The notes under the pieces are model-generated. The model was not told where the DNA came from. It saw only the letters and a list, made by a program, of their open reading frames with translations, and made no database searches. Both the position numbers and the translations under genes were made by a program. Shown here one piece after another: positions 6,271 to 47,917 of a stretch of 64,000 nucleotides of DNA (its first letter is position 1; each line of letters starts with the position of its first letter). The DNA comes from an uncultured Alphaproteobacteria bacterium (GTDB taxonomy: Bacteria; Pseudomonadota; Alphaproteobacteria; RF32; CAG-239), in NCBI GenBank assembly GCA_934254675.1, contig CAKQLP010000002.1, positions 15,731 through 79,730 of the forward strand. Direction: 5' to 3'.

Positions 6271-7842
6271 ATGGGATTGCGCTTTGCCGATTTAACATAT
6301 TCTGATAAAGAATTGGAACAAGATGCCATACATTATTTGAAAGAACAAGTGTATGAACCATCATATGCGGACAAGGTTAAAGCTTTTATTGCTGAAGATG
6401 TGGCAGATTTCAAGCGCAACTATGACGATGATGAAAATGTTTTCTTGAATTTATTTTATGATGAGTTTCGTAGCGGCTATGTGCCGATGGATGATCGTAA
6501 AATTTCCAACACAAATTTTCAGAAACTAACAAATGTTTTGGAAAAAGTTTTAGAGCGTTATGATGTGCCTGAAGATGATGTTGAGCGCTATGCTTTTATG
6601 TTGGACACAGAGTTTAGAAAAAACGCTTTTTGCTCGCATATGGAACCTTATTTTGCGGAATTAGATGCTGTGATAGCAACCGTAATGGTTGGATATTCCC
6701 GTAATCCGTTGTTCTCTATATATTCAATTGCTCGAGAATGGTGCATGGCTATGCATTTGAAAAAAATGTATCCGCAGCTGGTCAGAAAATTTGGTTATAA
6801 ATATCAACGGATATGTTATGATTATTCTGGAGAAGAACGATTAAAAAAACTTGTTGATTTTAAAGATAAATATCAGCACACATTTAAGAATATTGGTATA
6901 TTACGGGCAATTCATTCCAGTGTTTTTGCTTATGCGTATTTATATTTGAAAGCGGTGTTGACCAAAGAAGTTATCACGGCGGAAAATTTTATTTTAGATA
7001 GTTCTTCTTCAAAAATAACACTGTTATTGCAAGGTGAATCTATTACAAATTTTGATTTTCCTGTTACAAAATATGTCCTGAACAAGTTTAAAGAAGGAAT
7101 GTATGAAGATTTTTTGACGGAAGACGGAAAAATTAAATGGGATGCTCTGTATATTTTTACGTTTAATGCTATAAAAGATGCAGGTTTTGAAGGTATTCAC
7201 TTTTTTGGCTTTGACAGTATTGAAGCTAAAACCATACGTTCTTTTTGGAATAAAAGCGCCAATATGCAGAGCATGTTAAAAATATTGCGAAAATTGGCTT
7301 TGGAAAATAACAATCCGGTGTTTAATCGCCTGATAGAAGGGTGTGAATATCGTTTGGGACGGCCAGATAAAGCCAAAGAAAAAATGGAACAATTTATTGA
7401 AGATACGCGTCGAATTATGGCAGCTAGATCTTATGAGTTAACAAAACCGAGAACTATGGCGCAAGAACTGATTTCGGCTTTTCCTTCAGTATTTCTTGTT
7501 TATTTTCAGTGGCATCATAATTTTAGAAATATTTATCCAAAGTTTCCTGAGCGAGAAGCGCGTAAAAAAGACGAATTGCAAACAAAACTGAAACGAGATA
7601 CCGAGTTAAAAGAATTGGTTGCAAAACAAGCCGATAAATGGAAGCCTGTTCAAGAAAATGGTATTAAAGATATTGTTAGAAATAGTGTGCCAGAAGATAA
7701 ATTACGCGCTATTTTGGAAAATAAACAGCGAACAATGGCTGAAATGTCTCAGGAAAAACGTCGAGAGCAGTTTCAAGAACAAAATGCAGATAAGGCTTTG
7801 CGTACAGCGGAGCTTATGCGCCGTATGAATCAGAATTCTTGA
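6271..7842 (+). CDS. hypothetical protein (523 aa), charged C-terminal region, no signal peptide
   Basis: Long ORF with AGGGAG RBS. TTGACA-N17-TAGGAT promoter-like sequence at about 6220-6250. No known domain recognised. Confidence 0.6.
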   Translation: MGLRFADLTYSDKELEQDAIHYLKEQVYEPSYADKVKAFIAEDVADFKRNYDDDENVFLNLFYDEFRSGYVPMDDRKISNTNFQKLTNVLEKVLERYDVPEDDVERYAFMLDTEFRKNAFCSHMEPYFAELDAVIATVMVGYSRNPLFSIYSIAREWCMAMHLKKMYPQLVRKFGYKYQRICYDYSGEERLKKLVDFKDKYQHTFKNIGILRAIHSSVFAYAYLYLKAVLTKEVITAENFILDSSSSKITLLLQGESITNFDFPVTKYVLNKFKEGMYEDFLTEDGKIKWDALYIFTFNAIKDAGFEGIHFFGFDSIEAKTIRSFWNKSANMQSMLKILRKLALENNNPVFNRLIEGCEYRLGRPDKAKEKMEQFIEDTRRIMAARSYELTKPRTMAQELISAFPSVFLVYFQWHHNFRNIYPKFPEREARKKDELQTKLKRDTELKELVAKQADKWKPVQENGIKDIVRNSVPEDKLRAILENKQRTMAEMSQEKRREQFQEQNADKALRTAELMRRMNQNS

Positions 7843-9563: not shown

Positions 9564-10235
9564 CTAGGTAAGACTTTCTAATAATTTAGATAGTAGTTCA
9601 ATTGATTTCTGGGCGGTATTTTGCCAGAACTCGGCGTATTGTTGTTCTGAAAAAGGATGCCCCGGAATATCACTGATTTGCCGCAGACAAAGCAGCGGAG
9701 TTTGATAAATATAACAAGTTTGAGCAATGGCCGCGCTTTCCATATCCACAGCCAAAGCAGTTGGAAAATTATGAGTAATTGCGTCAAGTTCTTTTTTTTC
9801 GGTTATAAATTTATCTCCGCAACAAATAAGCCCATGTTTGAATTTGGAGAGTTTTGCGACAAGTTTCGGTTCTGAGTGGTAGGTGGCTGGAAATTCTTGA
9901 ATTTGTCCATAGGCATTTGGTTCTCCGCACCAAACGTCGTGGTAGGTGATATCTGAACCAATGATATATTCGCCGATATGCAGCTGATTGCTTAGTCCGC
10001 CGGAAATACCGATATTGAGAATAGCGTCTGGAGCGAAGGTTTCTATTAAATCTGCGGTGCAAAGTGCCGCGTTTACTTTACCAATACCGGAAACAACGGC
10101 AAAAAGCTCACAATTTTTGAATATTCCGTGGTAAAAGGAATGTTTTTTTCCTTGCGTTAAGGCAAAGTCAGATACAATTGAAGCAAAAAGCTCAAGTTCT
10201 TTGTTCATAGCAAATATAACGCCGATTTTTTTCAT
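9564..10235 (-). CDS. mtnN: 5'-methylthioadenosine/S-adenosylhomocysteine nucleosidase
   Basis: PNP/UDP family features of Pfs: MKKIGVIFAM..E.., ..VSGIGKVNAA.., ..DMESAAIAQ... Confidence 0.8.
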   Translation of the reverse strand: MKKIGVIFAMNKELELFASIVSDFALTQGKKHSFYHGIFKNCELFAVVSGIGKVNAALCTADLIETFAPDAILNIGISGGLSNQLHIGEYIIGSDITYHDVWCGEPNAYGQIQEFPATYHSEPKLVAKLSKFKHGLICCGDKFITEKKELDAITHNFPTALAVDMESAAIAQTCYIYQTPLLCLRQISDIPGHPFSEQQYAEFWQNTAQKSIELLSKLLESLT

Positions 10236-10404
10236 GATTAACACTCCTTTGATTTTAGGATAATAAATTGTAAAATATTTAGCAACATAAAACTTGACAA
10301 TGCACAGAATGTAAGGTTAATAATTGTGTAGCGGGAATGACAACTGCAATGTGGATTTATAACCAACTTGTCCAGCAGTCAAATGGACTAAAAAGGAGAA
10401 AAAA

Positions 10405-24813: not shown

Positions 24814-25410
24814 ATGATATATGGATATGTAAGAGTCTCGACAGATAAGCAAACATTGGAAAATCAAAAGTTTGAAATTAATAATTTTTGTCAGAATGAA
24901 AAAATTAAAGTTGAAAAGTGGGTAACAGAAACCATTAGCGGAACTAAAGATTTTGAAAAACGAAAACTTGGAAAATTACTAAAAAAGCTCAGAAAAGATG
25001 ATATTTTGATATGTTCTGAAATTTCACGTTTAGGACGTAATTTGCTGCAAATCATGACAATACTTAATTTTTGCATGAAAAAGGAAGCGCAGGTTTGGAC
25101 AATTAAAGATAATTATCGATTAGGTGTTGATATTCAAAGCAAAGTGCTGGCTTTTGCATTTTCGTTATCGGCAGAAATAGAACGAAATTTGATTAGTCAA
25201 AGAACAAAGGAAGCTTTGGCTCGACTCAAGGCCAATGGCCAAAAGTTGGGTCGAGTTTTGGGAAGCAAAAATAAGAAGCATATTTTAGACGGCAAAGAGC
25301 AAAGTGTTTTGCAGCTTATAAACAAAGGTGTTCCTAAAACTAAAGTGGCAAGAATACATGGTGTTAGTGTTTACACAATCTATAAATTTTTAAAAAATAG
25401 CTATAAATAA
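24814..25410 (+). CDS. small serine recombinase (resolvase/DNA invertase family)
   Basis: N-terminal catalytic motif MIYGYVRVSTDKQ.. and a C-terminal HTH (VARIHGVSVYTIYKFLK). 198 aa. Confidence 0.8.
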   Translation: MIYGYVRVSTDKQTLENQKFEINNFCQNEKIKVEKWVTETISGTKDFEKRKLGKLLKKLRKDDILICSEISRLGRNLLQIMTILNFCMKKEAQVWTIKDNYRLGVDIQSKVLAFAFSLSAEIERNLISQRTKEALARLKANGQKLGRVLGSKNKKHILDGKEQSVLQLINKGVPKTKVARIHGVSVYTIYKFLKNSYK

Positions 25411-25449: not shown

Positions 25450-25525
<76 letters not shown>

Positions 25526-25626: not shown

Positions 25627-26256
25627 TTAATTGTCAAACGGCGGTGCCATATCTGATGAATTAAAATTTATATGTTTCAGATAATTATACAGTGTTTTAC
25701 GATTACAGTTTAATATTTGAGCAATTTTGCTTTTAGGGGTATTATTTTTTAATAAAAGAAAAATTTTGTGATTGTGAGAATCTAGGATATGCCTATTGTT
25801 TTTACGTCCCGAAGGGCGGCCGAGCGGATGTCCTTCATTACGAAGTCGGTTTAAGGCTTCTTTGGTTCGTTGGCTAATAAGATTTCTTTCTATTTCAGCG
25901 GATAAGCCAAATGCAAACGCCAACACTTTACTTTGGATGTCAGAACCTAATCGGTAATTATCTTTAATTGTCCAAATAAGGACGCCTTTATTTAAACAAA
26001 AATTTAGAATGCTCATAACTTGAAAAAGGTTTCGACCTAATCTGGACAGTTCCGAAGCTATAAGAATATCTTTTTCTGAAAGTGTTTGGAGTAAGTTTCC
26101 TAATTTTCGTTTGTTTAATTCTTGAGTTGCGCTAATTGTTTCCATAATCCATCGGTCTATTTTTATTTTTTCTTTTTTGCAAAATTTTTCGATTTCATAT
26201 TTTTGATTTTTTGTAGTTTGCTTATCTGTGCTGACGCGAATATAACCATATATCAT
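25627..26256 (-). CDS. small serine recombinase (resolvase/DNA invertase family), paralog of 24814..25410
   Basis: MIYGYIRVSTDKQ.. catalytic N-terminus. Roughly 60-65% aa identity to the neighbouring recombinase, with a C-terminal HTH. Confidence 0.8.
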   Translation of the reverse strand: MIYGYIRVSTDKQTTKNQKYEIEKFCKKEKIKIDRWIMETISATQELNKRKLGNLLQTLSEKDILIASELSRLGRNLFQVMSILNFCLNKGVLIWTIKDNYRLGSDIQSKVLAFAFGLSAEIERNLISQRTKEALNRLRNEGHPLGRPSGRKNNRHILDSHNHKIFLLLKNNTPKSKIAQILNCNRKTLYNYLKHINFNSSDMAPPFDN

Positions 26257-26403
26257 GACTGTTTTCCCCAGTGGTCGTTTTTGTTGAAAAGAATAAAATT
26301 AAAATGTTTTTGATTGTTTACAAAGCAAACAACAAGCTTGTAAATAGTCAAAACAATGCTTATCATTTTTCTGTTTAATATCTTTATCCATTGGAGAAAA
26401 CAA

Positions 26404-29400
26404 ATGAAGCTCAAACTGAATAAAAGACAATTGTTTTATGGATTGTTTATTACTGTATCTGTGATTGCGGGAGTTCTCACAGGCGTTTATTTTAGCGGTG
26501 AATATATTTTGGGTAAGGATAAACTGGAAATTGCTAAAATCGGCAAGATAGATGTTCCGGCACCAACTAACTACGGAGAAAACGGAACAGTTTATCCTCA
26601 GCCTTTGTCCGTGACTTTTAATACTTCTGTGGCGGCTTTGGATAAAATAGGGCAGAATATAAAAAACGGCATAAATATTCAGCCTGATATCCGAGGCAGT
26701 TGGCAATGGATTAGCGGTGATTGCTTAATATTTACACCGGAAACGGATTGGTTGCCGAACACGTCATATAAAGTGACGATGAGTAAAAAAATTTTTAGTC
26801 CGCAAATCAAAATTGACAGTTATGACTTTCGTTTTAATTCTCCGGAATTTGTAGGAAATGTTATTGCTTCGGATTTTTATGAAGATCCACGGGAACTAAA
26901 AAACAAATCGGTTACAGCCAGTTTTAAATTTACATATCCGTTGGATATAAAGGATTTGAAAAAAAATATTCAAATAAAAACCGTTGGCGGAGAAGATTAT
27001 GATTTTGATTATAAGCTGGAAGAACATAACACAGTTCTGCATATAGTTTCAAAACCTGTAAAAATTAAAGATGAAGAAGATTTTGCTAAAATAAATATTC
27101 AAAAATTGGGCAATGCGTATAATCAAAAATTGTTGAAAAACACATTGGAAACAACGGTTAAGATTCCAAGCAGCACGACTTTTTTTAAAATTAAAAGGAT
27201 TTTTTCTGAAATTGTTAGAAATCCTCAAAAAAATAATAATCCCGAACAAATTTTAACGGTTGAGTTTACAACAGCGGTTAACCAAGAAGAATTGGCTCAA
27301 GCATTAAAGTTAAAATATTCAAAAGAAGATTGCTCGGTTTTGAGAGAAAAATTGTCTAAAAATCAGATTTCCGAAACGGAAGATTTAAATTTAGAAAATG
27401 TTTCTCAAACTCAAACAGATGCAAAAACTCAAATGTTTAAATATGACAGTTTTGAAAATAAAGGCTGTTTGCTGGCTTTAATAGACAATAATTTAACGTC
27501 GATTGAAGGATTTAAACTGGGAAAAGAAGACTCTGTGTCCGCAACGGCGGTTAACATGGCTTTTTATCCTCTGGAAGCTGATATGGCGTTTGACGGTGCA
27601 ATCCTTTCTTTGCAAGGCAGTAGAAAAATTGGCTTTATATCCAGAGGAGTTAAAGAATTGGATGTGGATATTGCCAGAATTAAAGAAAGTGATTTGAATC
27701 ATTTAGTTACACAAACTTATGGAAATTTTGAAAAACCGAATTTTGAATATTATAATTTTTCTGAAGAAGATATTGCTGAGATTTTTCATAAAAAATTACC
27801 TATAATTTCAAAAAATCCGGCGGAAGCGAATTATTCATCTTTGGACTTAAATGAATATTTAGAAAATAGGAAAGGTGTGTTTTTGCTATCTATTTATGGT
27901 AAAAACGGACAAAAATCGAGTTATAAAAATCGACGTTTATTGTTAATGACTGATTTGGGAATTGTGGTGAAAGATAATGTTGATAAAACTCATGATGTTT
28001 TTGTTTCTAATATTGCTTTGGAACAGCCTGTTGTCGGCGCCGATGTTCAAGTTTTAGGAAAAAATGGTCAGCCGGTGCTGACAGCTGTCACAGATAAAAA
28101 CGGGGTGGCAAAATTAGGCGATTTTTCAGCATTTACAAATGAAAAATCAGCAGTTGTTTATAAGGTTATAAAAGATGGGGATATTTCTTTTTTGCCTATT
28201 AATAAAGAAGACCGAATGCTGAATATGTCGCGTTTTGATGTTGGCGGAGACTATATAGACAGTGGTAATGATGCGCAAAATTCATTAAAAGGGTATATTT
28301 TCAGTGATAGAGGCGTTTATCGACCTTCGGAAACCGGACATTTGGGAATTTTGGTGCGTCAAGCAAATTTAACTATACCTCAGCAGCTTCCTTTGGATTT
28401 AATAATCCGCAAACCAAATGGTGAAATTTTTGCAACCCAGAAACTTTTGAGCAATGCCGATGGCTTTATGTCCTATGATTTTGTTTTGCCTGAAACGGTA
28501 TTGACAGGGGTGTATTCTGCCGAACTTTGGCTTAATGGAAAAGATAATCAGTCAATGTTTGTCGCTTATTCTTTTTTTAGAGTGGAAGAGTTTATGCCGG
28601 ACACCATGAAAATAAAAGCGGAAATTTCTCAAAGTTTTTCACAAGGATGGTATAATAATAAAACTTTAACGATTGACGCGGATTTGCAAAATTTATATGG
28701 AATTCCTGCGGCCGGCCATGTTTTACAAACAGAATACAATCTGATGCCGGTAGATTTTAGTTTTGAGTCCTATAAAGAATATAAATTCTGTAATCCTTAT
28801 CAGGAAAATAAAGTGAAAACGCTAAAGGATACTTTGCCTGATGTAAAAACAGATAGTGACGGAAAAGCTGAAATATCTATCAATTTGAGTGATTTTACAC
28901 AAGGAATGTACAAAATACATGTCAATATAGACGGTTTGGAAAACGGTGGAGCCCGTGGTGTTGGCACAAGCGTTTCAGCTTATGTTTCTCCGGCGGATTA
29001 TTTAATTGGCTGGAAAACCGATGGAAAACTGGACTATATTTATAAAGGGGCTGAACGAAAAGTAGATTTGATAGCTGTAAATAATGAACTGCAAACAATT
29101 GAACTGAAAAATCTGTCGCTGAAATTGATGAAAAAAAATTATGTGTCCGCATTGGTGGAGCAAAATAACGGAACATATCAATATCAAACAGTGTCTAAAG
29201 AAATATTGGTTAAAAAATCACCATTAATTATTTCAGCTTTAGGATTTAGTCAAAATTTGGAAACGTCGGAAGCAGGGGATTATGTTTTACTTGTTTGCGA
29301 TAATGTCAGCGGAAAAATTTTGGCCAAAATTGATTATTCTGTGTCTGGAGAAATGAATACGACGCAAAAAATAGATAAAAACACTCAATTGGGGGTAAAA

Positions 29401-31908
29401 CTTGATAAAAAAGAATACAATGCTGGTGAAACAATAAAAATGCAAATATCCGCGCCGTATCAGGGATATGGATTAATTACAATTGAACGCGACAGTGTAT
29501 ATGCTTATAAATGGTTTAAAATGGATAGTCTGACGAAAAATGAGGAAATTGTTTTGCCGAAGGATGTTGAGATAAACGCTTATGTCAATATAGCGGTATT
29601 TCGTTCTTTGAGTTCTTCAGATATTTATCTGTCTCCGCTAAGTTATGCAACAGTTCCATTCAGTATAAATAAGGAAAATAGAAAATTGGATATAGAGTTG
29701 GAGGTTCCGCAAAAAATTAAATCAGGCGGCGATTTACAGGTAAAATATAAAACAGCACAGGATGCTAAAATAATTATTTATGGCGTAAATGAAGGTATTT
29801 TGCAGGTGAGCCGATATAATATGCCGAATTTACTGGATATTTTTATGGCCAAAAGAGCGTTGCGAGTGATTACATCACAGATTATGGATTTAGTTATGCC
29901 AGATATTCGTTTTTTCCGCAATTTAAGTTCAAGCGGTGGAGATGGCGGCGAATCTGATGATTTTTTGAATCGAAATTTAAATCCATTTGCCCGTAAAACC
30001 GATAAGCCTGTTGCTTTTTGGAGCGGAATACTTCAAAGTGACGGCAATGAAAACGTGTATTCTTATCATGTTCCTGAAACATTTAACGGAAAAATAAAAA
30101 TTATGGCTGTGGCCGTGTCTAAAGATAAATTTGGCAGCGCAGATAAATCTGTTTTGGTTCAAAGCGACTTTGCGCTTGTTCCGTCAGGTCCATACAATGT
30201 GACGCCAAGCGATGAATTTATTGTCGGTTTGAGTGTTGGAAATCTTTTGGATAATTTGGATGATAAAGTTGCTGTAAATGTGTCATCAGAAGATGATTTT
30301 GAATTTGTGGGCGACACGCAACAAATTGTGAATTTACCAGCTCAAAAAGAAACGTTTTTGAACTTTCGTTTGAAAGCCGGACCAAAATTGGGGGCAAAAA
30401 CAATTTTATTTACTGTGCAAAGTCTAAGTGATGCAAGTCGAAAGGCTGTTATGCCGTTTAATTTAAGTGTTCGTTCCGCATCGCCTTATAGCAGTAAATT
30501 TGATATGGGATTGGCTAAATCTTCATATTCTCCGAGTGATGTTGAAAATATGTATGATGAATATCGTGTACAAAAAATATCGGCGTCTTCTTCACCTTTG
30601 GTTTTTGCGCAAGGATTGTTGCAGTATCTAAATAAATATCCGCATTATTGCACCGAACAAACGGTTAGCAAAATTTTTCCGGCAATGGAATTGTTTTTTA
30701 AATCTCCGGAACTATTAAACGGAATGGACGTTTACACGTTATTTGATGATGCAATGCGTGTTTTGCGGGAACGTCAAGCCATTAATGGTGGTTTCGCTTC
30801 TTGGAATAGTGACGTTTTAGACGTTAACACAAGAGATTCTTTATATGCCTCTCATTTTTTGGTTTTAGCCAAAAAACATGGATTTAATGTTCCTGAATAT
30901 ATGCTAAATTCCGCTTTATCTTATTGTGAAAGTGTTGCCGCGCTTCAGCCGAGTGATGAAAATGATATATATCCGGCGTATGCTTCCTATATTTTAACGT
31001 TGAATGGAAACATAACAACAAATTATTTGCTGAATTTGGAAGAATTTTATAAGGCGGAATTTGCCAAAGATTGGCAAAAAAATATAAGCACTGTCTTTTT
31101 GGCGGCAAGCTATAAACTTTTGCAAGATGAAAAACATGCTTCTTTATTGTTTGGGCAATATGAAGATACTTCAAATGCAACGGCAAACGCTATGAATATT
31201 TATCTGACAGCTAAGCATTTTCCGGAAAAAATGAAAACATTGACTAAAAATAGTGTAGAGCAATTATTAAAGCCTTTGTCTGAGGGAAATTTTACGACTT
31301 ATTCTGCTGGATGGTCCGTTTTGGCATTGAATGCGTTTAACCAAATGGAAAAAGATAAAGAAATTGAATTTTCTCCATTGAAATCCAAAGCAGATCCTTT
31401 TCCGACAATGTATTACACGCCAGAAACAAAGAATATAAAAGTTTCGGCTCCGTATCCTTTTTATTATGTAAATGCGCAGCAGGGTTTTTCAAAAAATTTG
31501 AACATAAAAGCTTATTCAAATGGATTGGAAGTGAGTAAAACATATTTTGATAGAAACGGGCAAATTGCAACGCATGCTAAACTGGGTGACGTTTTAACTG
31601 TTAAAGTAAATTATCGCAGTAATGATAAAGAACCTATATTTGATGTCGCTTTTGTTGATTTGTTTGCCGGATGCTTTGAAATGGTGGATAATTCTTTGGA
31701 AACCGGAAAAGATACAACCAACTCTGAAATTAGAGAAGACAGGGTAAATGTATATGCTCCGGCATTTGTGTATGAACAATCTTTCAGTTATAAAGTTAAA
31801 GTTGTTGCGGAAGGCACGTTTATTTTACCGGCGGTTTATGCTTCAGCAATGTACCAACCTTTGGCGCGTGCAAATTCCACTATGTCTAAGATAGTTGTCG
31901 GGGAATAA
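26404..31908 (+). CDS. alpha-2-macroglobulin family protein with intact CTEQ thioester
   Basis: About 1830 aa with an N-terminal signal-anchor and MG-domain-like repeats. Thioester motif YCTEQTVSK lies near the C-terminal third. Immediately followed by pbpC. Confidence 0.85.
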   Translation: MKLKLNKRQLFYGLFITVSVIAGVLTGVYFSGEYILGKDKLEIAKIGKIDVPAPTNYGENGTVYPQPLSVTFNTSVAALDKIGQNIKNGINIQPDIRGSWQWISGDCLIFTPETDWLPNTSYKVTMSKKIFSPQIKIDSYDFRFNSPEFVGNVIASDFYEDPRELKNKSVTASFKFTYPLDIKDLKKNIQIKTVGGEDYDFDYKLEEHNTVLHIVSKPVKIKDEEDFAKINIQKLGNAYNQKLLKNTLETTVKIPSSTTFFKIKRIFSEIVRNPQKNNNPEQILTVEFTTAVNQEELAQALKLKYSKEDCSVLREKLSKNQISETEDLNLENVSQTQTDAKTQMFKYDSFENKGCLLALIDNNLTSIEGFKLGKEDSVSATAVNMAFYPLEADMAFDGAILSLQGSRKIGFISRGVKELDVDIARIKESDLNHLVTQTYGNFEKPNFEYYNFSEEDIAEIFHKKLPIISKNPAEANYSSLDLNEYLENRKGVFLLSIYGKNGQKSSYKNRRLLLMTDLGIVVKDNVDKTHDVFVSNIALEQPVVGADVQVLGKNGQPVLTAVTDKNGVAKLGDFSAFTNEKSAVVYKVIKDGDISFLPINKEDRMLNMSRFDVGGDYIDSGNDAQNSLKGYIFSDRGVYRPSETGHLGILVRQANLTIPQQLPLDLIIRKPNGEIFATQKLLSNADGFMSYDFVLPETVLTGVYSAELWLNGKDNQSMFVAYSFFRVEEFMPDTMKIKAEISQSFSQGWYNNKTLTIDADLQNLYGIPAAGHVLQTEYNLMPVDFSFESYKEYKFCNPYQENKVKTLKDTLPDVKTDSDGKAEISINLSDFTQGMYKIHVNIDGLENGGARGVGTSVSAYVSPADYLIGWKTDGKLDYIYKGAERKVDLIAVNNELQTIELKNLSLKLMKKNYVSALVEQNNGTYQYQTVSKEILVKKSPLIISALGFSQNLETSEAGDYVLLVCDNVSGKILAKIDYSVSGEMNTTQKIDKNTQLGVKLDKKEYNAGETIKMQISAPYQGYGLITIERDSVYAYKWFKMDSLTKNEEIVLPKDVEINAYVNIAVFRSLSSSDIYLSPLSYATVPFSINKENRKLDIELEVPQKIKSGGDLQVKYKTAQDAKIIIYGVNEGILQVSRYNMPNLLDIFMAKRALRVITSQIMDLVMPDIRFFRNLSSSGGDGGESDDFLNRNLNPFARKTDKPVAFWSGILQSDGNENVYSYHVPETFNGKIKIMAVAVSKDKFGSADKSVLVQSDFALVPSGPYNVTPSDEFIVGLSVGNLLDNLDDKVAVNVSSEDDFEFVGDTQQIVNLPAQKETFLNFRLKAGPKLGAKTILFTVQSLSDASRKAVMPFNLSVRSASPYSSKFDMGLAKSSYSPSDVENMYDEYRVQKISASSSPLVFAQGLLQYLNKYPHYCTEQTVSKIFPAMELFFKSPELLNGMDVYTLFDDAMRVLRERQAINGGFASWNSDVLDVNTRDSLYASHFLVLAKKHGFNVPEYMLNSALSYCESVAALQPSDENDIYPAYASYILTLNGNITTNYLLNLEEFYKAEFAKDWQKNISTVFLAASYKLLQDEKHASLLFGQYEDTSNATANAMNIYLTAKHFPEKMKTLTKNSVEQLLKPLSEGNFTTYSAGWSVLALNAFNQMEKDKEIEFSPLKSKADPFPTMYYTPETKNIKVSAPYPFYYVNAQQGFSKNLNIKAYSNGLEVSKTYFDRNGQIATHAKLGDVLTVKVNYRSNDKEPIFDVAFVDLFAGCFEMVDNSLETGKDTTNSEIREDRVNVYAPAFVYEQSFSYKVKVVAEGTFILPAVYASAMYQPLARANSTMSKIVVGE

Positions 31909-34228
31909 GTTGAGAGGATGTGTCCGCAAATTATATCAGAACGTGTTTATTCGTTTTGCTTTGCTTTTATTATTGATTACTACGGTCGTTTATATTCTTG
32001 TCCCAAAGCCGGATTTGTACAACAAATACAGTTTTTCCAGCGCTGTTTATGATACAAACGGCAAACTGCTTAAACTCTCTTTGAGCAACGATGATAAATA
32101 TCGATTGTTTGTTTCTTTGCAAAATGTTCCAATTGAAGCCCGTCAGGCTTTGTTATTATACGAAGATCAATATTTTTATTATCATATCGGAGTTAATCCG
32201 TTTAGTCTATTTCGGGCAATTTTAGCAATGTCAAGCGGAGGAAGACGCCAAGGCGCGTCAACAATAACCATGCAAGTGGCGCGCATTGTGTTTCAGATAA
32301 ATTCAACCTCTTTTTTAGGAAAAATAGAGCAAATATTCCGTGCACTGCAAATTGAATTATTTTATAGCAAAAATGAAATTCTTGAAGCTTATTTTAATTT
32401 GGCGCCCTATGGTGGAAATATTGAAGGCATCGGGGCGGCGGCGTTAATCTATTTTCAACAAAACGCTGATAAACTTAATTTACCACAGATTTTGGCATTG
32501 ACAGTAATACCTCAAAATCCATCTAAACGTTCTTTGCTGACAGAGATTAATCGTAAACAGAATAGTGTTGCGTATCAAAGAATAAAAAATATATGGCTTG
32601 AAAAATATCAACATTCCCAAAATGAATATTTAAATCTTCCTTTGTCATCATCAGTATATTTGCCAGATAACGCATCGCATTTTACTCGAAGAATGTTTGC
32701 CGCTTATCAGGGTGAAATAAAGACGACATTAAATCTGAATTATCAAAAAGATTTGGAAGACATTATTCGCCGATATGTGGCTGAACAACGGCAAAAAGGT
32801 GTGTTCAATGCATCAGCCCTATTGTTAGATAGTCAAGACATGTCTGTTTTGGCTTATGTCGGTTCAGCAGATTTTTATAATAAAAACATTTCAGGACAAG
32901 TTGATGGTATAGTTGCCCGCCGTTCTCCCGGTTCAACGCTAAAACCCTTTGTTTATGCCTTAGCTTTGGAGCAGGGATTGATACATCCTTTGAGTATGCT
33001 TAAAGATGTTCCCAGCCGATATGGATTTTATTCTCCGGAAAATTTTGACCATACTTATTATGGTCTTTTAAATGCAACGAGAGCTTTGACATTAAGCAGA
33101 AATATTCCGGCGGTGGAACTTTTAATGCAAGTTGGTGAGAAAAATTTTTATGAATTGTTAAAAAAATGTGGGGTTAACTTGCCCAAAAAAGCGGATTATT
33201 ATGGTTTAGCGATGGCATTGGGCGGTGTCGAGGTGTCCATGGAAAATTTAGCCTCAATGTATGCTATGCTTGCCAATAATGGAAAATTTTCAAACATTGT
33301 TTTTCTAAAAAGCGAAAGTGCGGATTTTCAGCAATTGTTATTGCCTGAAGCGGCTTTTCTAACACGTTACATGTTGTTTCAAAATGAAAGCATAGATAAA
33401 AATTTGTCAAAGTCCATTAAAAGAAAAGCTATTTCCGCCGCATGGAAAACCGGAACTTCGTTTAGTTATAAAGATGCTTGGACAGCAGGAATTTTTGGAA
33501 AATATGTGTTAGTTGTGTGGCTTGGTAATTTTAATGGAAAATCCAATTCTGCTTTTGTGGGTAGAAAACTGGCTGCGCCTTTATTCTTTAGGATAGCCAG
33601 AAGATTTATGGATAAGAATTTATTGTCGTCTTATAAAGACGAAACAGAATATTTAAATTTGGCTAAAGTTAAAGTTTGTCAGGATACGGGAGATTTAGCT
33701 ACGGAATTTTGCTATAAAACAGTTGAAACCTATTTTATTCCCGGGGTGACTTCAATTAAAAATTCAAATATTACCCGTTTGATTCCTATTGATAAAAAAA
33801 GCGGGTTGAGAGCTTGCCGACACACTCCGCCGCAAACGGAACTCAAAAGCTATAATTTTTGGCCGTCAGAGATATTGTCTGCATATCAAAAAGCTGGAAT
33901 AAATTTGCAAAAACCGCCGGCGTTTAAAGAAAATTGTCAAAATGTGGAAGATTTTGTTCAAGGAACACCTCCAAAAATATTGAGACCATATAATGGAGAA
34001 AAAATTTTACTCAGTTCTTTGCAAGGCGGAAAAATTTTGGCTGAGGCGACTGTTGACGCGGATACTAATGAAGTTTACTGGTTTATAAATAACCGGTTAT
34101 GCGGAGTTTCTAAAGCTAATGAAATTTATGAAATAACTCCTCCTCAATATGGTCGCTTAGAAGTTAAAGCCGTAGATGGCTTGGGGCGGCAGACAGCTGT
34201 TTCAATACAGATACAGTCATTAAATTAA
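31895..34228 (+). CDS. pbpC: penicillin-binding protein 1C (bifunctional transglycosylase/transpeptidase)
   Basis: GT51 motifs (EDQYFYYHIGVNP, RQGASTITMQ). Transpeptidase motifs STLKPF (SxxK), SRN and KTGTS. Overlaps the a2m stop by 14 nt. Confidence 0.85.
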   Translation: MSGNKLRGCVRKLYQNVFIRFALLLLLITTVVYILVPKPDLYNKYSFSSAVYDTNGKLLKLSLSNDDKYRLFVSLQNVPIEARQALLLYEDQYFYYHIGVNPFSLFRAILAMSSGGRRQGASTITMQVARIVFQINSTSFLGKIEQIFRALQIELFYSKNEILEAYFNLAPYGGNIEGIGAAALIYFQQNADKLNLPQILALTVIPQNPSKRSLLTEINRKQNSVAYQRIKNIWLEKYQHSQNEYLNLPLSSSVYLPDNASHFTRRMFAAYQGEIKTTLNLNYQKDLEDIIRRYVAEQRQKGVFNASALLLDSQDMSVLAYVGSADFYNKNISGQVDGIVARRSPGSTLKPFVYALALEQGLIHPLSMLKDVPSRYGFYSPENFDHTYYGLLNATRALTLSRNIPAVELLMQVGEKNFYELLKKCGVNLPKKADYYGLAMALGGVEVSMENLASMYAMLANNGKFSNIVFLKSESADFQQLLLPEAAFLTRYMLFQNESIDKNLSKSIKRKAISAAWKTGTSFSYKDAWTAGIFGKYVLVVWLGNFNGKSNSAFVGRKLAAPLFFRIARRFMDKNLLSSYKDETEYLNLAKVKVCQDTGDLATEFCYKTVETYFIPGVTSIKNSNITRLIPIDKKSGLRACRHTPPQTELKSYNFWPSEILSAYQKAGINLQKPPAFKENCQNVEDFVQGTPPKILRPYNGEKILLSSLQGGKILAEATVDADTNEVYWFINNRLCGVSKANEIYEITPPQYGRLEVKAVDGLGRQTAVSIQIQSLN

Positions 34229-40687: not shown

Positions 40688-41482
40688 TCAGTAAAACTTC
40701 CATAAAATGGAGTTTGCGTTTGCTGTTGAACTACAAGCTTTTGCCGCTTCAGCAACATTCATTGGCGTTTTTTGGGTAGTACCATTAACACATGCCGCCA
40801 TTGGTGTTGCTGTAGGTGTTGCTGTAGGTGTTGCAGGTGCAGGTGTTTCAGGTGTATTTAATTCCATATTGGCAGAGGCGAGTGCCGTGCCGTTTCCGCC
40901 AATGTTGTTTGATGCTGAACTAGCAGTAACTGAACCACCTGAGCAAGTTATTGATTGAACACCTGCAGAATCAGCGGTTTGTTCCGCACCAGAAGCTACA
41001 ATGCCGACTAAACCGGAAGAATAGCCGGAACCCCAATCATTGGTCGCCAAGGTCACGCAGGCTTCTTTCGGCAAGCCATTCATGATAACAAAAAATCCTC
41101 TGTTAGTCCCACTATCTGATCCGGCATCCATTCCGGTAACTGTGCCGGCACCGATAACAACCGAACCCAAGAAAGCGTTTTGAAGTTTTTTTCCTGTGGT
41201 TGAATTTGTACTATCCGCAATTTGCAGTTCATCCGGCACCACACCCATATGAATAGCCGAATCATTATCCAACCCGCTGTAATTTTGTTGTTGCGCGTAC
41301 AAAGTTCTGATGTTGGTCACAATCATGGCGACGTTGTCCGCAACTTTGTTTGTTTTAAATTTAGTCATGGCTTTTGAATAGCCGGCAATACCGCCAACGC
41401 TCAAAACGCCGATAATGGCCAGTACGCCCAACATTTCAATCATTGAACGGCCTGACTGTTCTTCATATTTATAATTATTCAT
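40688..41482 (-). CDS. type IV pilin-like protein (prepilin N-terminal domain), Thr/Pro-repeat containing
   Basis: Class III signal (..EEQSG|RSMIEMLGVLAIIGVLSVGGIAGY) with Glu at +5 and a hydrophobic alpha1 helix. C-terminal (ATPT)n repeats. The paralog at 47285 shares its first ~60 aa. Confidence 0.7.
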   Translation of the reverse strand: MNNYKYEEQSGRSMIEMLGVLAIIGVLSVGGIAGYSKAMTKFKTNKVADNVAMIVTNIRTLYAQQQNYSGLDNDSAIHMGVVPDELQIADSTNSTTGKKLQNAFLGSVVIGAGTVTGMDAGSDSGTNRGFFVIMNGLPKEACVTLATNDWGSGYSSGLVGIVASGAEQTADSAGVQSITCSGGSVTASSASNNIGGNGTALASANMELNTPETPAPATPTATPTATPMAACVNGTTQKTPMNVAEAAKACSSTANANSILWKFY

Positions 41483-41753
41483 TGTTTTCTCTTCCATAAT
41501 TCTTGTTAACACAAAAAAAGCCACCGATAAGGCAGCTGGAAGTTGGAAACTACTGATCAAAAAATAGTGTAGCATGTTAGCTATGTACATAGCCTATTTT
41601 GCTACCTTCCAGCCATATGACCAGAAGGCACGCACAAAATTTACGCCCTTGTACAAAGACGTTTGACCAAAGAGGTTTCCACACCCCAGACAGACTATCA
41701 TCCATCCATCTATCACTCTAACAAAGATGTTTGATAATGTAAAGAATATTTTT

Positions 41754-41996
41754 TTAATTATCCTTTTCATGTTTGCTGACATCTTGTTTTTCCAAGGCGG
41801 GGTTAGCTTTGGAATGTTCAATTTTGACTATTTCCGTGTGATAGTGGTCAACAATGTGCAGAAGTTTGTGCCAAAAACCTTCCTCGTAGGCAACAATAGT
41901 TCCCCATACAGCCATAATAAACATTAGTACGGTGGAAATACTTTCAGCTATGTCCAATTTTTCTTTTAGCGTGTATTTTTGTTTTGTGTTTTGCAT
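41754..41996 (-). CDS. small hypothetical membrane protein (80 aa)
   Basis: ORF with one hydrophobic helix. Weak evidence. Confidence 0.25.
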   Translation of the reverse strand: MQNTKQKYTLKEKLDIAESISTVLMFIMAVWGTIVAYEEGFWHKLLHIVDHYHTEIVKIEHSKANPALEKQDVSKHEKDN

Positions 41997-42148: not shown

Positions 42149-42832
42149 TTAAATCGCGGCAAAATGCTTTTTGATAAGCTGATGAATTTCAAGCATGTTG
42201 TCGCTGACGGCAAAAGCGCCGTTGTGGCGGCAAGCCGCGGCATATTCAGGCGTGTTGTGCCCTGTGGCGCCAATGTAGGCTATAACCGGAATGTTTGCCG
42301 CTTTGGCCGCTTTTACACCGGCTAGAGAATCTTCAACAACCAGACATTGCGCCGGTTCAAAATTCATTTGGCGGGCGGCGTATAGAAAAATGTCCGGCGC
42401 CGGCTTGCCGTTTGGCACCATATAGGCGGTAAACGTGTTTTTATTGTTAAAATACTTGTCCAATCCCAATTTGAATGTTTTTTTGTTATGTTTTTCAATT
42501 GTGGCGCCGGTGGCAACGCATTGCGCAAAGTTTTTATCGTCTAAAATTTGCTCGATGTTTTCGGTTAGAGTTAGTTCGGACGCAATTAAACGATCTTCGT
42601 TTTGGTGAATTTCTTGCCAAAAATTGTCATTCAGTTTCAGTTCCGGAAAATCATGCGCCAGCAAATCGACTTTTGTTTTGTCGGCTTTACCCTCCAGATA
42701 ACGTTTTTGCTGTTCTGGCGTCAGGGTGAAATTGTATAGTTTTTTCAAGGTGTCAACCCAGTTTTGCACCCACAAATGCTCGCTGTCGGCTAAAACGCCG
42801 TCAAAGTCCCAAATGATTAAATTTTTAGTCAT
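42149..42832 (-). CDS. HAD-superfamily hydrolase (subfamily IA, phosphatase/phosphomutase-like)
   Basis: Motif I (DFDGVLADSE), motif II (T) and motif III/IV (K...EDSLAGVKAAKAA). Overlaps the upstream GT gene by 8 nt. Confidence 0.8.
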   Translation of the reverse strand: MTKNLIIWDFDGVLADSEHLWVQNWVDTLKKLYNFTLTPEQQKRYLEGKADKTKVDLLAHDFPELKLNDNFWQEIHQNEDRLIASELTLTENIEQILDDKNFAQCVATGATIEKHNKKTFKLGLDKYFNNKNTFTAYMVPNGKPAPDIFLYAARQMNFEPAQCLVVEDSLAGVKAAKAANIPVIAYIGATGHNTPEYAAACRHNGAFAVSDNMLEIHQLIKKHFAAI

Positions 42833-44459
42833 GTTCTTTATCCTGTGTTTTTGTTCGATATTCGTCTTTTAAAATCATTAATTGTTCAATCTCGGTTGTT
42901 TTGTAATATTTGTTGATAAGTTCTTGATTCCATATATAGGCGTCAACGCTCGGAATTTTAACCATTAAGTCCGTCAAAGCGTAGTCCGGAATGTTTACAT
43001 TTTGATAAAGTCGAACCAAATCGGCGTTATATTCATACAATTTTTTAGCTCGCCGCTCATTAAGCGGGGTATTTGTGTAGTCTTTTGCAAAGATGACAGC
43101 CGGCATCTTTTGGGTTATCAGCGTGTCCAGATTGTTTTTTTTGCCAAAATTTATTTCATAGATATAACCGATGTCGTTAAGCTGAAACCAGACATAAGAA
43201 GGATCGGGACGAAACAGGTTATAGATGCAGTTGTCGGCGTTGAAAACCGTTTCGTCAGGCGAAGTATTCTTAATAACATAATCCGCCATCCTTAAAACAG
43301 TCGTGCTGGAATTTTTGCTCGGTTCGTTGGTATAGATGAATGAGGCGAAAATGATACAGGAAATTCCAAGAGCCGTGTGATAAAGCTTGTTTTTGAGTGG
43401 CGTGTCGTGCTTGAAAAAAGAGCAGGCAATGACAATGGCGGCAAGTTCAAAAAACAATGAAAAATAATGCACATACGGTGAAAATGTCAGCAATCGTATG
43501 CCGAGTTCGGCAAAAAGCAAAAAAATGATACATTTGCTGTAAATGGTATTATAAGATAAAAAAACGGGATAGAAAAGAATTGCCGCGCAACTAAATAGAA
43601 TTATGGAGGGCGTAAGAGTTATTGTTGCATATCCCAGTGTTGTCGGCATGTTTATTATTGTGTTCAGCGGAGTTGTTTTTATAATGTGAAAGCCATAATA
43701 AACGGGAATAAGACTGTTGAGCTTGTAATTTAATTCAAAATAAAGCGCAAACATATTGTGCCAAAAAAGCCATGCCGTAAAAATGCCGAATAAAAGCAAC
43801 GGCAAACAAAGCGCTTTAAAAAAATCTTGGTATTTTATTTGTTTTTTTATAAGCGCGTGAAAAATAAAAGCTCCCAAGAAAAACAGCAAGAGAATGATTT
43901 TTTGCAAAAAGAAAAAAGAGAGCGTGAACAAGGCAAATGAAATTGTTAATTTAATTGATTGTTTTGTTTCAAAATACCTGAATAAAAAATATAAACCGCT
44001 CCAAAAACAGAGATTCATAAAAACATCTGGTCGGAATTCAACAAAATTTCGGCTTAAATAATCTCCGCAACCAAAAAGCAAAAGAGCCAAAACCCATTGT
44101 TTGCCGGTTCCAAAATAACGTGTAATGATTTTATAAATGAAAAACCAACTTGTCAAAACGGCTAAAAAAACGGAAAAACGAGCCACATAATAGACATTGA
44201 CATTGTCAAACATAAAACCAGTGATGGGCGCAAACAAATACCATAACAGCGGGTTATGATGTTCAAAAAAATCAAGATAAGGCGTTTTTCCGCTCCAAAC
44301 AAGCCACGACGCGTGTATATGCTCCAGTTCATCAACATTCAACAAACCGCTGTTTGTAAAAAGATGAGCCAAAGTTTGCGCCATAAATAACAAAATGAAA
44401 AGTGTGTTTAATAAGTTTTTTGATGACGGGAGTTTTATTTTAGCTTTTAGTTGTTCCAT
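42825..44459 (-). CDS. ArnT/PMT-family (COG1807-like) GT-C membrane glycosyltransferase
   Basis: First periplasmic loop NVDELEHIHASWLVWSGKTPYLDFFEHHNPLLWYL matches the DE....ML.SGDW..P.L....YFEKPPL.YW signature of ArnT/PMT_2 enzymes. Multiple TM helices and a C-terminal soluble domain. Confidence 0.6.
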   Translation of the reverse strand: MEQLKAKIKLPSSKNLLNTLFILLFMAQTLAHLFTNSGLLNVDELEHIHASWLVWSGKTPYLDFFEHHNPLLWYLFAPITGFMFDNVNVYYVARFSVFLAVLTSWFFIYKIITRYFGTGKQWVLALLLFGCGDYLSRNFVEFRPDVFMNLCFWSGLYFLFRYFETKQSIKLTISFALFTLSFFFLQKIILLLFFLGAFIFHALIKKQIKYQDFFKALCLPLLLFGIFTAWLFWHNMFALYFELNYKLNSLIPVYYGFHIIKTTPLNTIINMPTTLGYATITLTPSIILFSCAAILFYPVFLSYNTIYSKCIIFLLFAELGIRLLTFSPYVHYFSLFFELAAIVIACSFFKHDTPLKNKLYHTALGISCIIFASFIYTNEPSKNSSTTVLRMADYVIKNTSPDETVFNADNCIYNLFRPDPSYVWFQLNDIGYIYEINFGKKNNLDTLITQKMPAVIFAKDYTNTPLNERRAKKLYEYNADLVRLYQNVNIPDYALTDLMVKIPSVDAYIWNQELINKYYKTTEIEQLMILKDEYRTKTQDKEHD

Positions 44460-44520
44460 TTTTTTGCCTTATTATATTCTAAATGTAGCATAAAAGAATA
44501 TTGGCGGAGAGTCAATTTAT

Positions 44521-45270
44521 ATGTATTTGGATTTTGCAAAAATACCAATTTATGCACTGGTTTTGAAAAAATGTCTTACATGGATTGAAAATATTTTATA
44601 TAACATATTAGGTGTTATGTATTTAGAGGAAATAATGTTTTTAAATAATTTCTTTGAAAAATTTTCCGGTCGGTTGTGTTGGAATGTTAACTTTTTTACT
44701 TTTTTAGAAGTTTTTCTTATAATTCTGACGCCGTTTATGGTGAAATATGCCAATCCCGAATTGTTTATAGAAGGGAATGTCGTTGAAAATTTGCAGTTGG
44801 TTATACTGGTTGTGGCGTTTTGCGTGGCATTTAGAGCGCCAAAAGATAAAAAAATGTTTAGAGCATTGGCGTTGGTCGTTATTTTGCTGCTGATGCGCGA
44901 AACAAATTTGGGGCGAGGGTATTTTTGTGCAAAATATTTGTCACCAGAGGATATTTGTCGTTGGAAAAATCTAAAATATGGTTTTTTTGTGGAACCTTTG
45001 CGCAATTTGTACGGGCTATTCATTTTGTATTATGTTTGGCGGCAAAAGGTTTATAAAGTTGTGGGGCAATATATGTTGAAAGCGCCGTTATTTGTTTGGG
45101 ATTTGAGCATTTTTGTCGGTGCGGTTGTAACAGCCACTTTGGCGGAGTGGCCGCAAATTGATAATGAAATTTTGGAAGAATCTTGTGAAACTTTGATGTA
45201 TGTTGCGTTTTTGAATTGTTTATACCGCTATGAACGATGTAAAATTAAAAATAGTGAAATTGGTGATTAA
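44521..45270 (+). CDS. hypothetical membrane protein (249 aa)
   Basis: Several hydrophobic helices. Divergent from the GT-C gene. Confidence 0.4.
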   Translation: MYLDFAKIPIYALVLKKCLTWIENILYNILGVMYLEEIMFLNNFFEKFSGRLCWNVNFFTFLEVFLIILTPFMVKYANPELFIEGNVVENLQLVILVVAFCVAFRAPKDKKMFRALALVVILLLMRETNLGRGYFCAKYLSPEDICRWKNLKYGFFVEPLRNLYGLFILYYVWRQKVYKVVGQYMLKAPLFVWDLSIFVGAVVTATLAEWPQIDNEILEESCETLMYVAFLNCLYRYERCKIKNSEIGD

Positions 45271-46913: not shown

Positions 46914-46944
46914 GATATTTGGAAAAGGTGTTTTTCCCTGTCAT

Positions 46945-47175
46945 TCTCGGACATGCTTTATTAAACACATTTTAAATGTCATTTTCGGATGTGTTCTTAC
47001 TTTTTTCATGTCATTCTCGGACGTGTTCCGAGAATCCATATAAAATGATAAAGGAATGGATGGATCCTCGGGTCAAGCCCGAGGATGACGATAAATAATA
47101 AAGGATGACATAATAAAAAAAACACCCGAGGATGACGCAATAAAAAATACTCAAGGGATGACATTGAAGAGAGAG
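46945..47175. repeat. cluster of short GC-rich palindromic/direct repeats in AT-rich intergenic DNA
   Basis: TGTCATTCTCGGACRTG x3. Perfect palindromes ATTCTCGGAcgtgtTCCGAGAAT and CCTCGGGtcaagCCCGAGG. Direct repeats RGGATGACR x4 at about 21-27 bp spacing. Confidence 0.6.
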
Positions 47176-47284: not shown

Positions 47285-47917
47285 ATGAATATGATGAAAA
47301 CAAATGAAACCGGTCGTTCCATGATTGAAATGCTCGGTGTTTTGGCGATTATCGGTGTGCTGTCCGTTGGTGGTATTGCCGGCTATTCCAAAGCTATGAA
47401 CAAATTTAAAACAAACAAGGTTGCAGATAATGTGTCTATGATTGTGACCAACATCAGAACCTTGTACGCGCAACAAAATAATTATGCGGGTTTAAATAAT
47501 ATAACAGCTATTCAAATGGGCGTTGTTCCAGATGAATTGGGTACAGACACTACTTCAGGTACTTTAACAAATGCCTTTTTAGGTGGTGTTAATATTGGCA
47601 CAGCAACAGTTACCAGTTTGGATGCTGGTACATCTGGCGCCAATAGAGGATTCTTTTTAACCATGAACGGTTTGACTAAAGAAGCGTGCGTGACCTTGGC
47701 CGCCAATGACTGGGGTTCCGGTTATTCCGCCGGTTATGTGGGAATGACTGTTTCTGGCTCGGCTCAAACTAGTTATAACACGTCATTTGCTGTAAATTGC
47801 ACGGATCGTGGAGCAGCTAAATGGTGTGCAAGCCAAGGACCGATGCAGGTTTCTCAAGCGGCCACTGGTTGTTCTGCCACTGGAAACACAAATTCGATTA
47901 CTTGGGTATTCTACTGA
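47285..47917 (+). CDS. type IV pilin-like protein, paralog of 40688..41482
   Basis: AAGGAG RBS. Signal ..NETG|RSMIEMLGVLAIIGVLSVGGIAGYSKAM. C-terminus NSITWVFY versus NSILWKFY in the paralog. Confidence 0.7.
   Translation: MNMMKTNETGRSMIEMLGVLAIIGVLSVGGIAGYSKAMNKFKTNKVADNVSMIVTNIRTLYAQQNNYAGLNNITAIQMGVVPDELGTDTTSGTLTNAFLGGVNIGTATVTSLDAGTSGANRGFFLTMNGLTKEACVTLAANDWGSGYSAGYVGMTVSGSAQTSYNTSFAVNCTDRGAAKWCASQGPMQVSQAATGCSATGNTNSITWVFY

Follow-up and report, generated by a model that had tools for sequence, protein, structure and literature searches.

What does a membrane glycosyltransferase (GT) encoded between two type IV pilin genes of an uncultured gut alphaproteobacterium act on, the pilins beside it or another component of the cell envelope? 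The gene lies in a 64-kb stretch of contig CAKQLP010000002.1 (assembly GCA_934254675.1), here called the window, and an earlier note on this DNA had read the transferase, the phosphatase gene coupled to it and the two pilins as a candidate pilin glycosylation system. We propose that the locus encodes an extracytoplasmic glycosylation module specific to a clade of uncultured gut and rumen Alphaproteobacteria, with an envelope glycan as a likelier acceptor than the pilins, a reading to which we give about an even chance. The open reading frames (ORFs) named in the note are all present in the window, and the features of the locus are as follows.

40688..41482 (likely true coordinates), minus strand: pilin 1, a type IVb-like (Bundlin/PilS) prepilin of 264 aa
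41511..41705, minus strand: leader RNA of about 195 nt between small80 and pilin 1, with a terminator at 41537..41519
41754..41996, minus strand: small80, an 80-aa single-helix membrane protein, last gene of the GT-HAD unit (homologues at 15 loci)
42149..42832, minus strand: HAD-IA phosphatase (beta-phosphoglucomutase/YqaB/HxpB-like) of 227 aa (HAD_2, TIGR01509)
42825..44459, minus strand: glycosyltransferase of predicted GT-C fold, 544 aa (ORF, Pfam PMT_2, AlphaFold, Foldseek)
44460..44634: divergent intergenic (promoter) region between GT and MEM, with a sigma-70-like site at 44515..44487 on the minus strand (consensus scan only)
44635..45270 (the listed ORF begins at 44521), plus strand: MEM, a six-helix membrane protein of 211 aa, divergent from GT (conservation, AlphaFold)
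47285..47917 (likely true coordinates), plus strand: pilin 2, a pilin 1 paralog of 210 aa, without the T/P linker and without a leader RNA

Toward pilin 1 the gene order is GT, HAD, small80, the leader RNA with its terminator, and pilin 1. The stop codon of GT and the start codon of HAD overlap by 8 nt (ATGACTAA), in agreement with the operon that the note had described, and the tight junction is kept in relatives, with a gap of 0 nt in L001 and L004. The placement of the GT-HAD pair between two genuine type IV pilin genes, judged by class-III signals and Bundlin/PilS matches, also stands.

A GT-C transferase facing the periplasm

GT residues 41-75 contain NVDELEHIHASWLVWSGKTPYLDFFEHHNPLLWYL, which the note had taken for the first-loop signature of ArnT/PMT_2 transferases. 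The motif is indeed there, but the filing under ArnT/PMT is weak. PMT_2 (PF13231), the sole Pfam family found at E<=0.1 (no Wzy_C, no TPR), matches marginally, with 27.4 bits against a gathering cut-off of 26.1, and its match spans residues 91-230 (helices 2-7), leaving the loop-1 motif outside; the precomputed PF13231 match is absent from many homologues. An NCBIfam scan gave no family at E<=0.1, and searching the PDB sequences with a profile of the GT family gave nothing relevant, neither a solved ArnT nor a PMT.

The fold is more telling. In a Foldseek search the AlphaFold model, built from 29 homologues (pLDDT 84.8, pTM 0.88), matched GT-C enzymes of the PDB exclusively, at 10-14% identity: PglB (E=2.4e-4), human and yeast STT3, AglB, PIG-M, DPY19, ArnT, ALG9, Pmt4, Emb and AftA, with the best TM-score for ArnT (5ezm, 0.54/0.54 over 539 columns). 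Read from the model helices, the protein has 11 transmembrane (TM) helices with the N-terminus inside, followed by a C-terminal periplasmic domain of about 165 aa modelled as mixed alpha/beta; the positive-inside count is 8 K/R in 30 residues for the inner loops and 6 in 125 for the outer loops.

In an alignment of 29 sequences (A1) the loop-1 residues D43, E46, H47, P60, Y61, F64, H67 and H68 are invariant, L71 and W73 are invariant or near-invariant, and the family displays a distinctive invariant motif, D-x-x-E-H...P-Y-x-D-F-F-E-H-H-x-P-L-L-W-Y. Loop 2 has an invariant P144 and a near-invariant D145 (RPD motif), Q186, N244, N248 and Y332 are invariant too, and K187 is invariant or near-invariant. 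All invariant and near-invariant positions map to outer loops or outer helix ends, and the topology check called for in the note places D43/E46/H47 after helix 1 on the K/R-poor, periplasmic side. Such an arrangement is expected if a GT-C enzyme works at the periplasmic face with a sugar linked to a lipid phosphate. On the strength of the model, assignment to the GT-C superfamily with the active site facing the periplasm is solid, and the fold suggests a lipid-linked (polyprenyl-phosphate) sugar donor.

The GT belongs to a distinct, lineage-restricted family without a characterised member. A word-indexed search found 70 clusters, the best name among them being 'glycosyltransferase family 39 protein', in metagenome-assembled genomes, while 1.84 billion representatives yielded 637, 2498 and 5735 clusters of 50% identity at E<=1e-30, 1e-10 and 1e-3, respectively. 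Species genomes of GTDB hold 484 genes of the family, all in uncultured Alphaproteobacteria of gut or rumen, where a genome often has several of them, commonly in tandem. Literature searches found no paper on the GT family, on pili of these bacteria or on the leader RNA. A family of this size (hundreds of genes) that is confined to uncultured Alphaproteobacteria of the human and animal gut is of interest in itself, and periplasmic GT-C enzymes shape surface antigens such as lipopolysaccharide (LPS), capsules and pili, and through them phage susceptibility and immune recognition.

Conserved partners of the transferase

The proteins of the window were compared by tblastn with 85 loci, in which the neighbouring ORFs were clustered. 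The orthologous clade, at a GT identity of 34-56%, comprises 15 loci; about 65 others are paralog loci. Identity across the orthologous loci is 71-85% for HAD, 34-56% for GT and 41-63% for MEM.

The invariant neighbour of the GT is MEM, not a pilin. The MEM gene is adjacent to and divergent from GT in every orthologous locus (GT identity 34-56%) where the contig allows this to be seen, and in relatives it encodes about 205 aa directly upstream of GT. Its 82 homologues are restricted to the clade, and none is named or has a Pfam domain. Alignment A2 shows about 20 invariant charged or polar residues, including E46, E51, N52, Q54, R88, E89, N91, R94, E120 and R123, as well as E171, D176, E178, E181, E182 and E185, and an invariant C98/C108 pair, and the positive-inside rule predicts that the invariant residues, the Cys pair included, are periplasmic. 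The AlphaFold model (pLDDT 82.7) has six helices and found no fold match in the PDB by Foldseek (best E=0.57); Pfam and NCBIfam likewise gave no match for either MEM or small80. A GT-C enzyme with an obligatory membrane partner of this kind could reveal a new component of donor delivery or acceptor presentation.

On sequence grounds the 227-aa protein clearly falls in subfamily IA of the HAD superfamily. It matches HAD_2 (E=5.7e-24) and TIGR01509 HAD-IA (66.9 bits against a cut-off of 29.4) and has the catalytic motifs, with the nucleophile in DFDG at residues 9-12 and EDS at 167. The best partial NCBIfam matches are to sugar-phosphate phosphatases of the beta-phosphoglucomutase, YieH, YqaB and HxpB types, none of them at equivalog level. 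The HAD gene lies 3' of GT with a junction of 0-16 nt in the clade of at least 50% identity and in L016, and is confined to these closer relatives and L016. In many relatives a nitroreductase-fold protein with a signal-peptide-like N-terminus is inserted between HAD and the small80 gene, which comes after the module in the orthologous loci.

The distant orthologs that lack HAD (L014, L015 and L019) have an extended-SDR NDP-sugar dehydratase/epimerase gene directly 3' of GT. In L014 (2515-9366) and L019 (8466-15154) the SDR gene is followed by UDP-galactopyranose mutase (Glf) and by tandem DUF4422 genes, of which clustering gives four to five at each locus and Pfam confirmed one; in L015 the contig terminates after the SDR gene. 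L014 and L019 thus look like a galactofuranose-type glycan cluster adjoining the MEM/GT pair. The GT paralogs, for their part, adjoin a PRK07208 FAD oxidoreductase and MlaC, or KdsB, or occur as tandem pairs next to a gene for a TPR protein or NagB.

As a side observation on the paralogs, a 521-aa PRK07208-family FAD oxidoreductase gene lies directly upstream of the GT-C paralog at 27 loci (within L018-L085, e.g. L034 8287-9852), in a conserved neighbourhood of the order GAPDH-PGK-...-MlaC-LeuRS.

Association with the pilins

Both pilins carry a class-III signal, G/RSMIEMLGVLAIIGVLSVGG (Gly-1, Glu+5 and a hydrophobic helix; G/RSMIE). Pilins 1 and 2 match Bundlin (2.5e-12 and 9.8e-11) and PilS (4.8e-10 and 6.2e-16) in Pfam, with N_methyl below its cut-off. 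They are paralogs, 67% identical in a MAFFT alignment, and pilin 1 bears an insertion of about 50 aa with a T/P-rich linker, TPETPAPATPTATPTATP. Ser, Thr and Gly together make up 32-33% of both mature proteins. The richness in Thr/Pro and Ser/Thr/Gly to which the earlier note had pointed is real, but the linker occurs only in pilin 1 and the Ser+Thr level is ordinary for the family. As only 1 of 123 pilins carries the linker, we rejected it as a glycosylation signal of the family as a whole; we also rejected high Ser/Thr content as evidence of glycosylation (all family members have 15-22% S+T).

If the flanking pilins were the acceptors, sugar would be transferred in the periplasm to their Ser/Thr residues before assembly, the pilin 1 linker being the prime target; acceptance by proteins more broadly is a variant of the same idea. 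We consider this rather unlikely, although several observations favour it. The window has no pilin-like genes beyond pilins 1 and 2, and neither is more than 3 kb from the module. Around the orthologous module, pilin-like genes are enriched: one is found within about 5 kb at 5/15 orthologous loci (the window, L008, L009, L010 and L011) versus about 2/65 paralog loci, and within 10 kb at 6/15 (adding L012, at 8 kb) versus 7/65. A fast-evolving, Cys-rich pilin-like gene (group B) recurs downstream of the module in L008-L012, at the position where the window holds a bundlin-like (group A) pilin. A TPR protein adjoins some GT paralogs, and precedents exist in TfpW, for pilins, and PgtC2, for Ser/Thr-rich disordered regions.

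Seen from the pilins, the association is hardly there. The co-occurrence of GT and pilin genes, which the note had suggested checking in relatives, was examined at 79 loci with relatives of the window pilins that a metagenome scan returned, over the flanks available, and a GT-family gene or MEM was found at only two: L099, with MEM at 6 kb next to the contig end, and L133, with a GT paralog 1.8 kb away. The closest pilin relatives with full flanks (L087 and L088) have neither. Many pilin loci consist of tandem pilins and conserved neighbours that resemble pilus-assembly genes (by size and N-terminal sequence only), and have no GT-C gene; the window, for its part, has no such neighbours. The pilin-like genes near the module in relatives belong mostly to this Cys-rich group B, a different subfamily without Ser/Thr-rich tracts. 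In the window, pilin 1 is set off from the GT operon by a promoter-like site of its own and by the structured leader with its intrinsic terminator, which makes it a separate regulatory unit and not a simple member of the operon.

The proximity of pilin and GT genes is therefore real but loose, and it is limited to one clade and not reciprocal; the enrichment may be inherited synteny, and the features that define TfpW are absent. Of the pilin glycosylation proposal, then, the GT-C/HAD/pilin locus itself is borne out, and beyond loose proximity nothing links the module to the pilins. Were the proposal true, this would be, to our knowledge, the first description of glycosylation machinery for type IVb-like pilins. 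The more elaborate version, in which MEM/GT-C-HAD-small80 is a new O-glycosylation system, centred on an uncharacterised GT-C family and a six-helix partner of novel fold, for type IVb-like pilins whose cassettes are switched by an undescribed riboswitch-like leader, appears distinctly doubtful to us.

Proposed function of the module and alternative readings

Starting from what is established, namely a periplasm-facing GT-C transferase with its conserved residues, the operon structure and the conserved partners MEM, HAD-IA and small80, we rank an envelope glycan ahead of a pilin as acceptor: we would put the former at roughly an even chance and regard the latter as rather unlikely. The preference derives from the glycan-biosynthesis context of the distant orthologs, the envelope context of the paralogs and the failed test from the pilin side.

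The core of the module would be the divergent gene pair MEM/GT-C, extended on the GT strand by the HAD-IA sugar-phosphate phosphatase, by the nitroreductase-fold protein in some relatives and by small80. On the outer side of the inner membrane, the GT would transfer sugar from a donor linked to polyprenyl phosphate to an extracytoplasmic acceptor. Its putative catalytic residue D43 lies with E46/H47 in predicted periplasmic loop 1, and the remaining invariant residues lie in predicted periplasmic loops 2-5. HAD may contribute to donor supply by a cytoplasmic reaction on a phosphosugar, a place that the NDP-sugar SDR enzyme might take in the distant orthologs. MEM is a candidate donor flippase or accessory subunit, and the LPS core, O-antigen or another surface polysaccharide is a likelier acceptor than the pilins.

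Several points weigh against this proposal. HAD is far better conserved than GT and resembles general sugar-phosphate phosphatases, and its coupling to GT may be a metabolic coincidence. No lipid-linked donor synthase (a GT2 of the GtrB/ArnC-like type or a UbiA-like phosphoribosyltransferase) and no recognised flippase were found in the locus, nor was a donor synthase or flippase found among the 25 of 48 Pfam families listed for the rest of the window. The best Foldseek E-values of the GT model go to protein oligosaccharyltransferases, and a TPR protein is the neighbour of some paralogs. Finally, the pilin gene next to the operon encodes a T/P-rich linker like those O-glycosylated by other GT-C enzymes, and pilin-like genes are, as described above, enriched near the orthologous module.

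A more specific alternative is drawn from the GT136 system of the Citrobacter youngae O-antigen, which comprises the GT-C enzyme ORF12, the HAD-PRP::UbiA synthase ORF15 (whose PRP part is a HAD-family phosphoribose phosphatase domain), the MATE flippase ORF14 and the SDR epimerase ORF13 (PMC11127046). Pentofuranose side branches are added to the O-antigen in the periplasm from a polyprenyl-phosphate donor, the SDR epimerase being optional, and ORF12 has 11 TM helices with essential D31/E34 (and Y35) just after helix 1 (PMC11127046). By analogy, HAD would strip the 5-phosphate from polyprenyl-phospho-ribose-5-phosphate, the SDR enzyme of the distant orthologs would epimerise the lipid-linked pentose, and the GT-C would add the pentofuranose to a surface glycan. 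The 11 TM helices and the acidic residues after helix 1 (D31/E34 in ORF12, D43-x-x-E46-H47 in the GT) are shared, and a HAD or SDR gene follows GT immediately. We nevertheless think such a system improbable here: the locus encodes no UbiA-type polyprenyl-phosphate phosphoribosyltransferase, MEM has no Pfam hit and no resemblance in fold to enzymes of that type, its conserved acidic residues being predicted to lie in the periplasm, the sole MATE gene of the window is 25 kb away, and HAD matches phosphatases of the beta-PGM/YqaB/HxpB type.

Lipid A modification of the ArnT type, with a cationic or acidic sugar placed on lipid A or Kdo as by ArnT and the rhizobial Rgt enzymes, is very unlikely, since the best TM-score for ArnT, the shared PMT_2 match and the location of some paralogs by KdsB and MlaC are set against the lack of any NCBIfam ArnT or equivalog match, of sequence relation to solved ArnT and of arnA-F-like genes among the window ORFs and listed Pfam families covered and in the orthologous loci examined.

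A structured leader RNA upstream of pilin 1

The leader between small80 and pilin 1 is a conserved structured RNA. Searches with nhmmer found 24 instances in 2.4 Mb of sequence, and the covariance model (R1) gave 21 matches, two divergent ones included, with a 189-bit match reported. The RNAalifold consensus has 52 pairs in seven helices, 17 of the pairs being compensatory. In this structure 97.7% of the cells are paired, against 32-44% with the partners slid, and 68 cells show double changes, against 6-11 in the slid controls; none of 500 shuffles reached the observed values on four of five measures, and 3/500 did so on the fifth. The copy in the window folds at -63.7 kcal/mol (z=-3.6). No Rfam 15 family matched at the gathering threshold or at E<=10.

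A consensus scan found a promoter-like site for the leader at 41743..41715, upstream of the intrinsic terminator listed above. On inspection of the alignment the terminator hairpin appears to covary. Its 5' arm shares sequence with the 3' strand of the closing helix, as in attenuators of the riboswitch type. This layout suggests a riboswitch-like attenuator and makes the leader a candidate new cis-regulator of pilin expression. Instances inspected one by one, like those at pilin-oriented loci, directly precede pilin-like genes, in several species; the exception, L091 14928-15123, precedes a non-pilin ORF of 270 aa. Instances are found at the following positions:

L001: 851-1036 and 11310-11503
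L009: 89-276 and 12694-12886
L087: 9772-9968
L011: 8138-8332
L012: 939-1136, minus strand
L096-L099, L101, L105 and L119: further instances

Pilin 2 has a box array in place of the leader RNA. Its upstream region (46935..47165) contains about six copies, in both orientations, of a box of about 11 bp, CCGAGRATGAC, including CCCGAGGATGAC at 47078 and 47125 and GTCATTCTCGGAC at about 46941 and 47010, and the array holds a perfect hairpin, TCCTCGGG-TCAAG-CCCGAGGA. The array may consist of binding sites for a regulator or may be a small repeat element. Repetitive sequence was also seen upstream of pilin genes at nine other loci (cluster 17).

A second GT-C-like protein and other features of the window

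The note had mentioned a second, more divergent GT-C-like membrane protein encoded with mtnN elsewhere in the window. This is correct in substance: both genes are on the minus strand, and they abut with no gap.

7830..9563, minus strand: second GT-C-like membrane protein, 577 aa, remote homologue of the first GT family
9564..10244, minus strand: mtnN, contiguous with the second GT-C-like gene

The kinship with the first family is only remote. A profile-profile comparison by hhalign (A7 versus A1) gave a probability of 89% (E=2.2e-6, 467 columns), whereas hhalign with the single sequence of the second ORF against A1 was negative. The protein matches TIGR04154 archaeo_STT3 at E=1.5e-5, far below the cut-off, and its C-terminus has a weak match to PDB 3vu0 (E=0.012), an STT3/AglB-like signal. 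None of its 26 homologues is named. Invariant residues are D88, R164-P165-D166-x-H168 and P486-Y487-H488, with a near-invariant D48, and the protein is 65-70% conserved in relatives, above the main GT. The adjoining mtnN is the gene for MTA/SAH (methylthioadenosine/S-adenosylhomocysteine) nucleosidase.

Two further arrangements were seen in the window. Two paralogous serine recombinase genes (Resolvase + HTH_7), at 24814..25410 on the plus strand and 25627..26256 on the minus strand, converge around a tRNA-Ala gene at 25450..25525 and may form an invertase or an integration hotspot. At 26356..34228 on the plus strand, genes called from size and synteny encode an 1850-aa alpha-2-macroglobulin-like protein (A2M) followed by a PBP1C-type transglycosylase/transpeptidase (PbpC). 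A2M-PbpC is a classic bacterial gene pair, and in L004, L012 and L013 it shares synteny with the GT module.

Comparison with known systems

TfpW, the GT-C enzyme that serves as D-arabinofuranosyl (D-Araf) transferase for Pseudomonas group IV pilins, is encoded immediately downstream of pilA in every species and has 646 aa, a C-terminal TPR domain, a DDX motif and a YX6PFX7P motif (bioRxiv 10.1101/2020.04.19.049825). The window GT resembles it in the acidic motif of periplasmic loop 1, in having ArnT as the closest structural template and in the nearby pilin gene. It is set apart by the described features of TfpW: it has 544 aa and no TPR, lacks a DD dipeptide (the loop-1 DDX) and matches neither Pro-rich pattern (loop 4). 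Pilin 1 follows GT-HAD-small80 with its own leader and terminator in between, and across the related pilin loci the adjacency is not conserved, 77 of the 79 being without a family member. The note's view that the locus follows the same logic as TfpW accordingly falls on gene position, TPR, DDX and YX6PFX7P alike, and with none of the defining features present we rejected membership in the TfpW type. Of D-Araf donor genes (PPPRS, DprE1/E2), none was seen in the 64-kb window among the 25 Pfam families listed of the 48 found for the rest of it.

The streptococcal GT-C enzyme PgtC2 O-glucosylates extracytoplasmic Ser/Thr-rich disordered regions with GtrB, from a polyprenyl-phosphate sugar (PMC12041528). 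The pilin 1 linker is of this Ser/Thr-rich type, but PgtC2 belongs to the YfhO family, works in Gram-positive hosts on many membrane-protein acceptors and is served by GtrB, a synthase with no counterpart in the window locus.

With ArnT/PMT_2 (CAZy GT83/GT39) the GT shares the overall fold, the marginal PMT_2 match and a periplasmic acidic residue in loop 1. ArnT has 13 helices, whereas the GT has 11 together with its distinctive invariant motif and no arn operon. A profile match to ArnT within an arn operon was one of the results that the earlier note had named as speaking against pilin glycosylation; neither the match nor the operon was found, so on this point the note's proposal is not contradicted. 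Genes resembling arnA-F were absent from the window ORFs scanned individually, from the orthologous loci examined and from the 25 listed Pfam families of the remaining window ORFs. Membership in ArnT was rejected on the missing NCBIfam ArnT match, sequence match to solved ArnT and arn context. STT3/PglB/AglB was rejected because the GT has no WW or WWD (WWDYG motif) and resembles these enzymes at the level of the fold only (11-12% identity), and PglL/TfpO because the GT has no Wzy_C domain.

For an envelope-glycan module, the nearest parallel is the GT136 system of C. youngae. The likeness is one of architecture only: an 11-TM GT-C enzyme, an acidic pair after helix 1 and a HAD or SDR partner. 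The window locus differs in having neither a UbiA-type synthase nor a MATE flippase and in its extra partner, MEM; its HAD is free-standing and beta-PGM-like and not a fused PRP domain, and the C-terminal domain of the GT is different. As an analogy, the three-component GT136 system is nonetheless suggestive, being the closest operon logic found for this locus.

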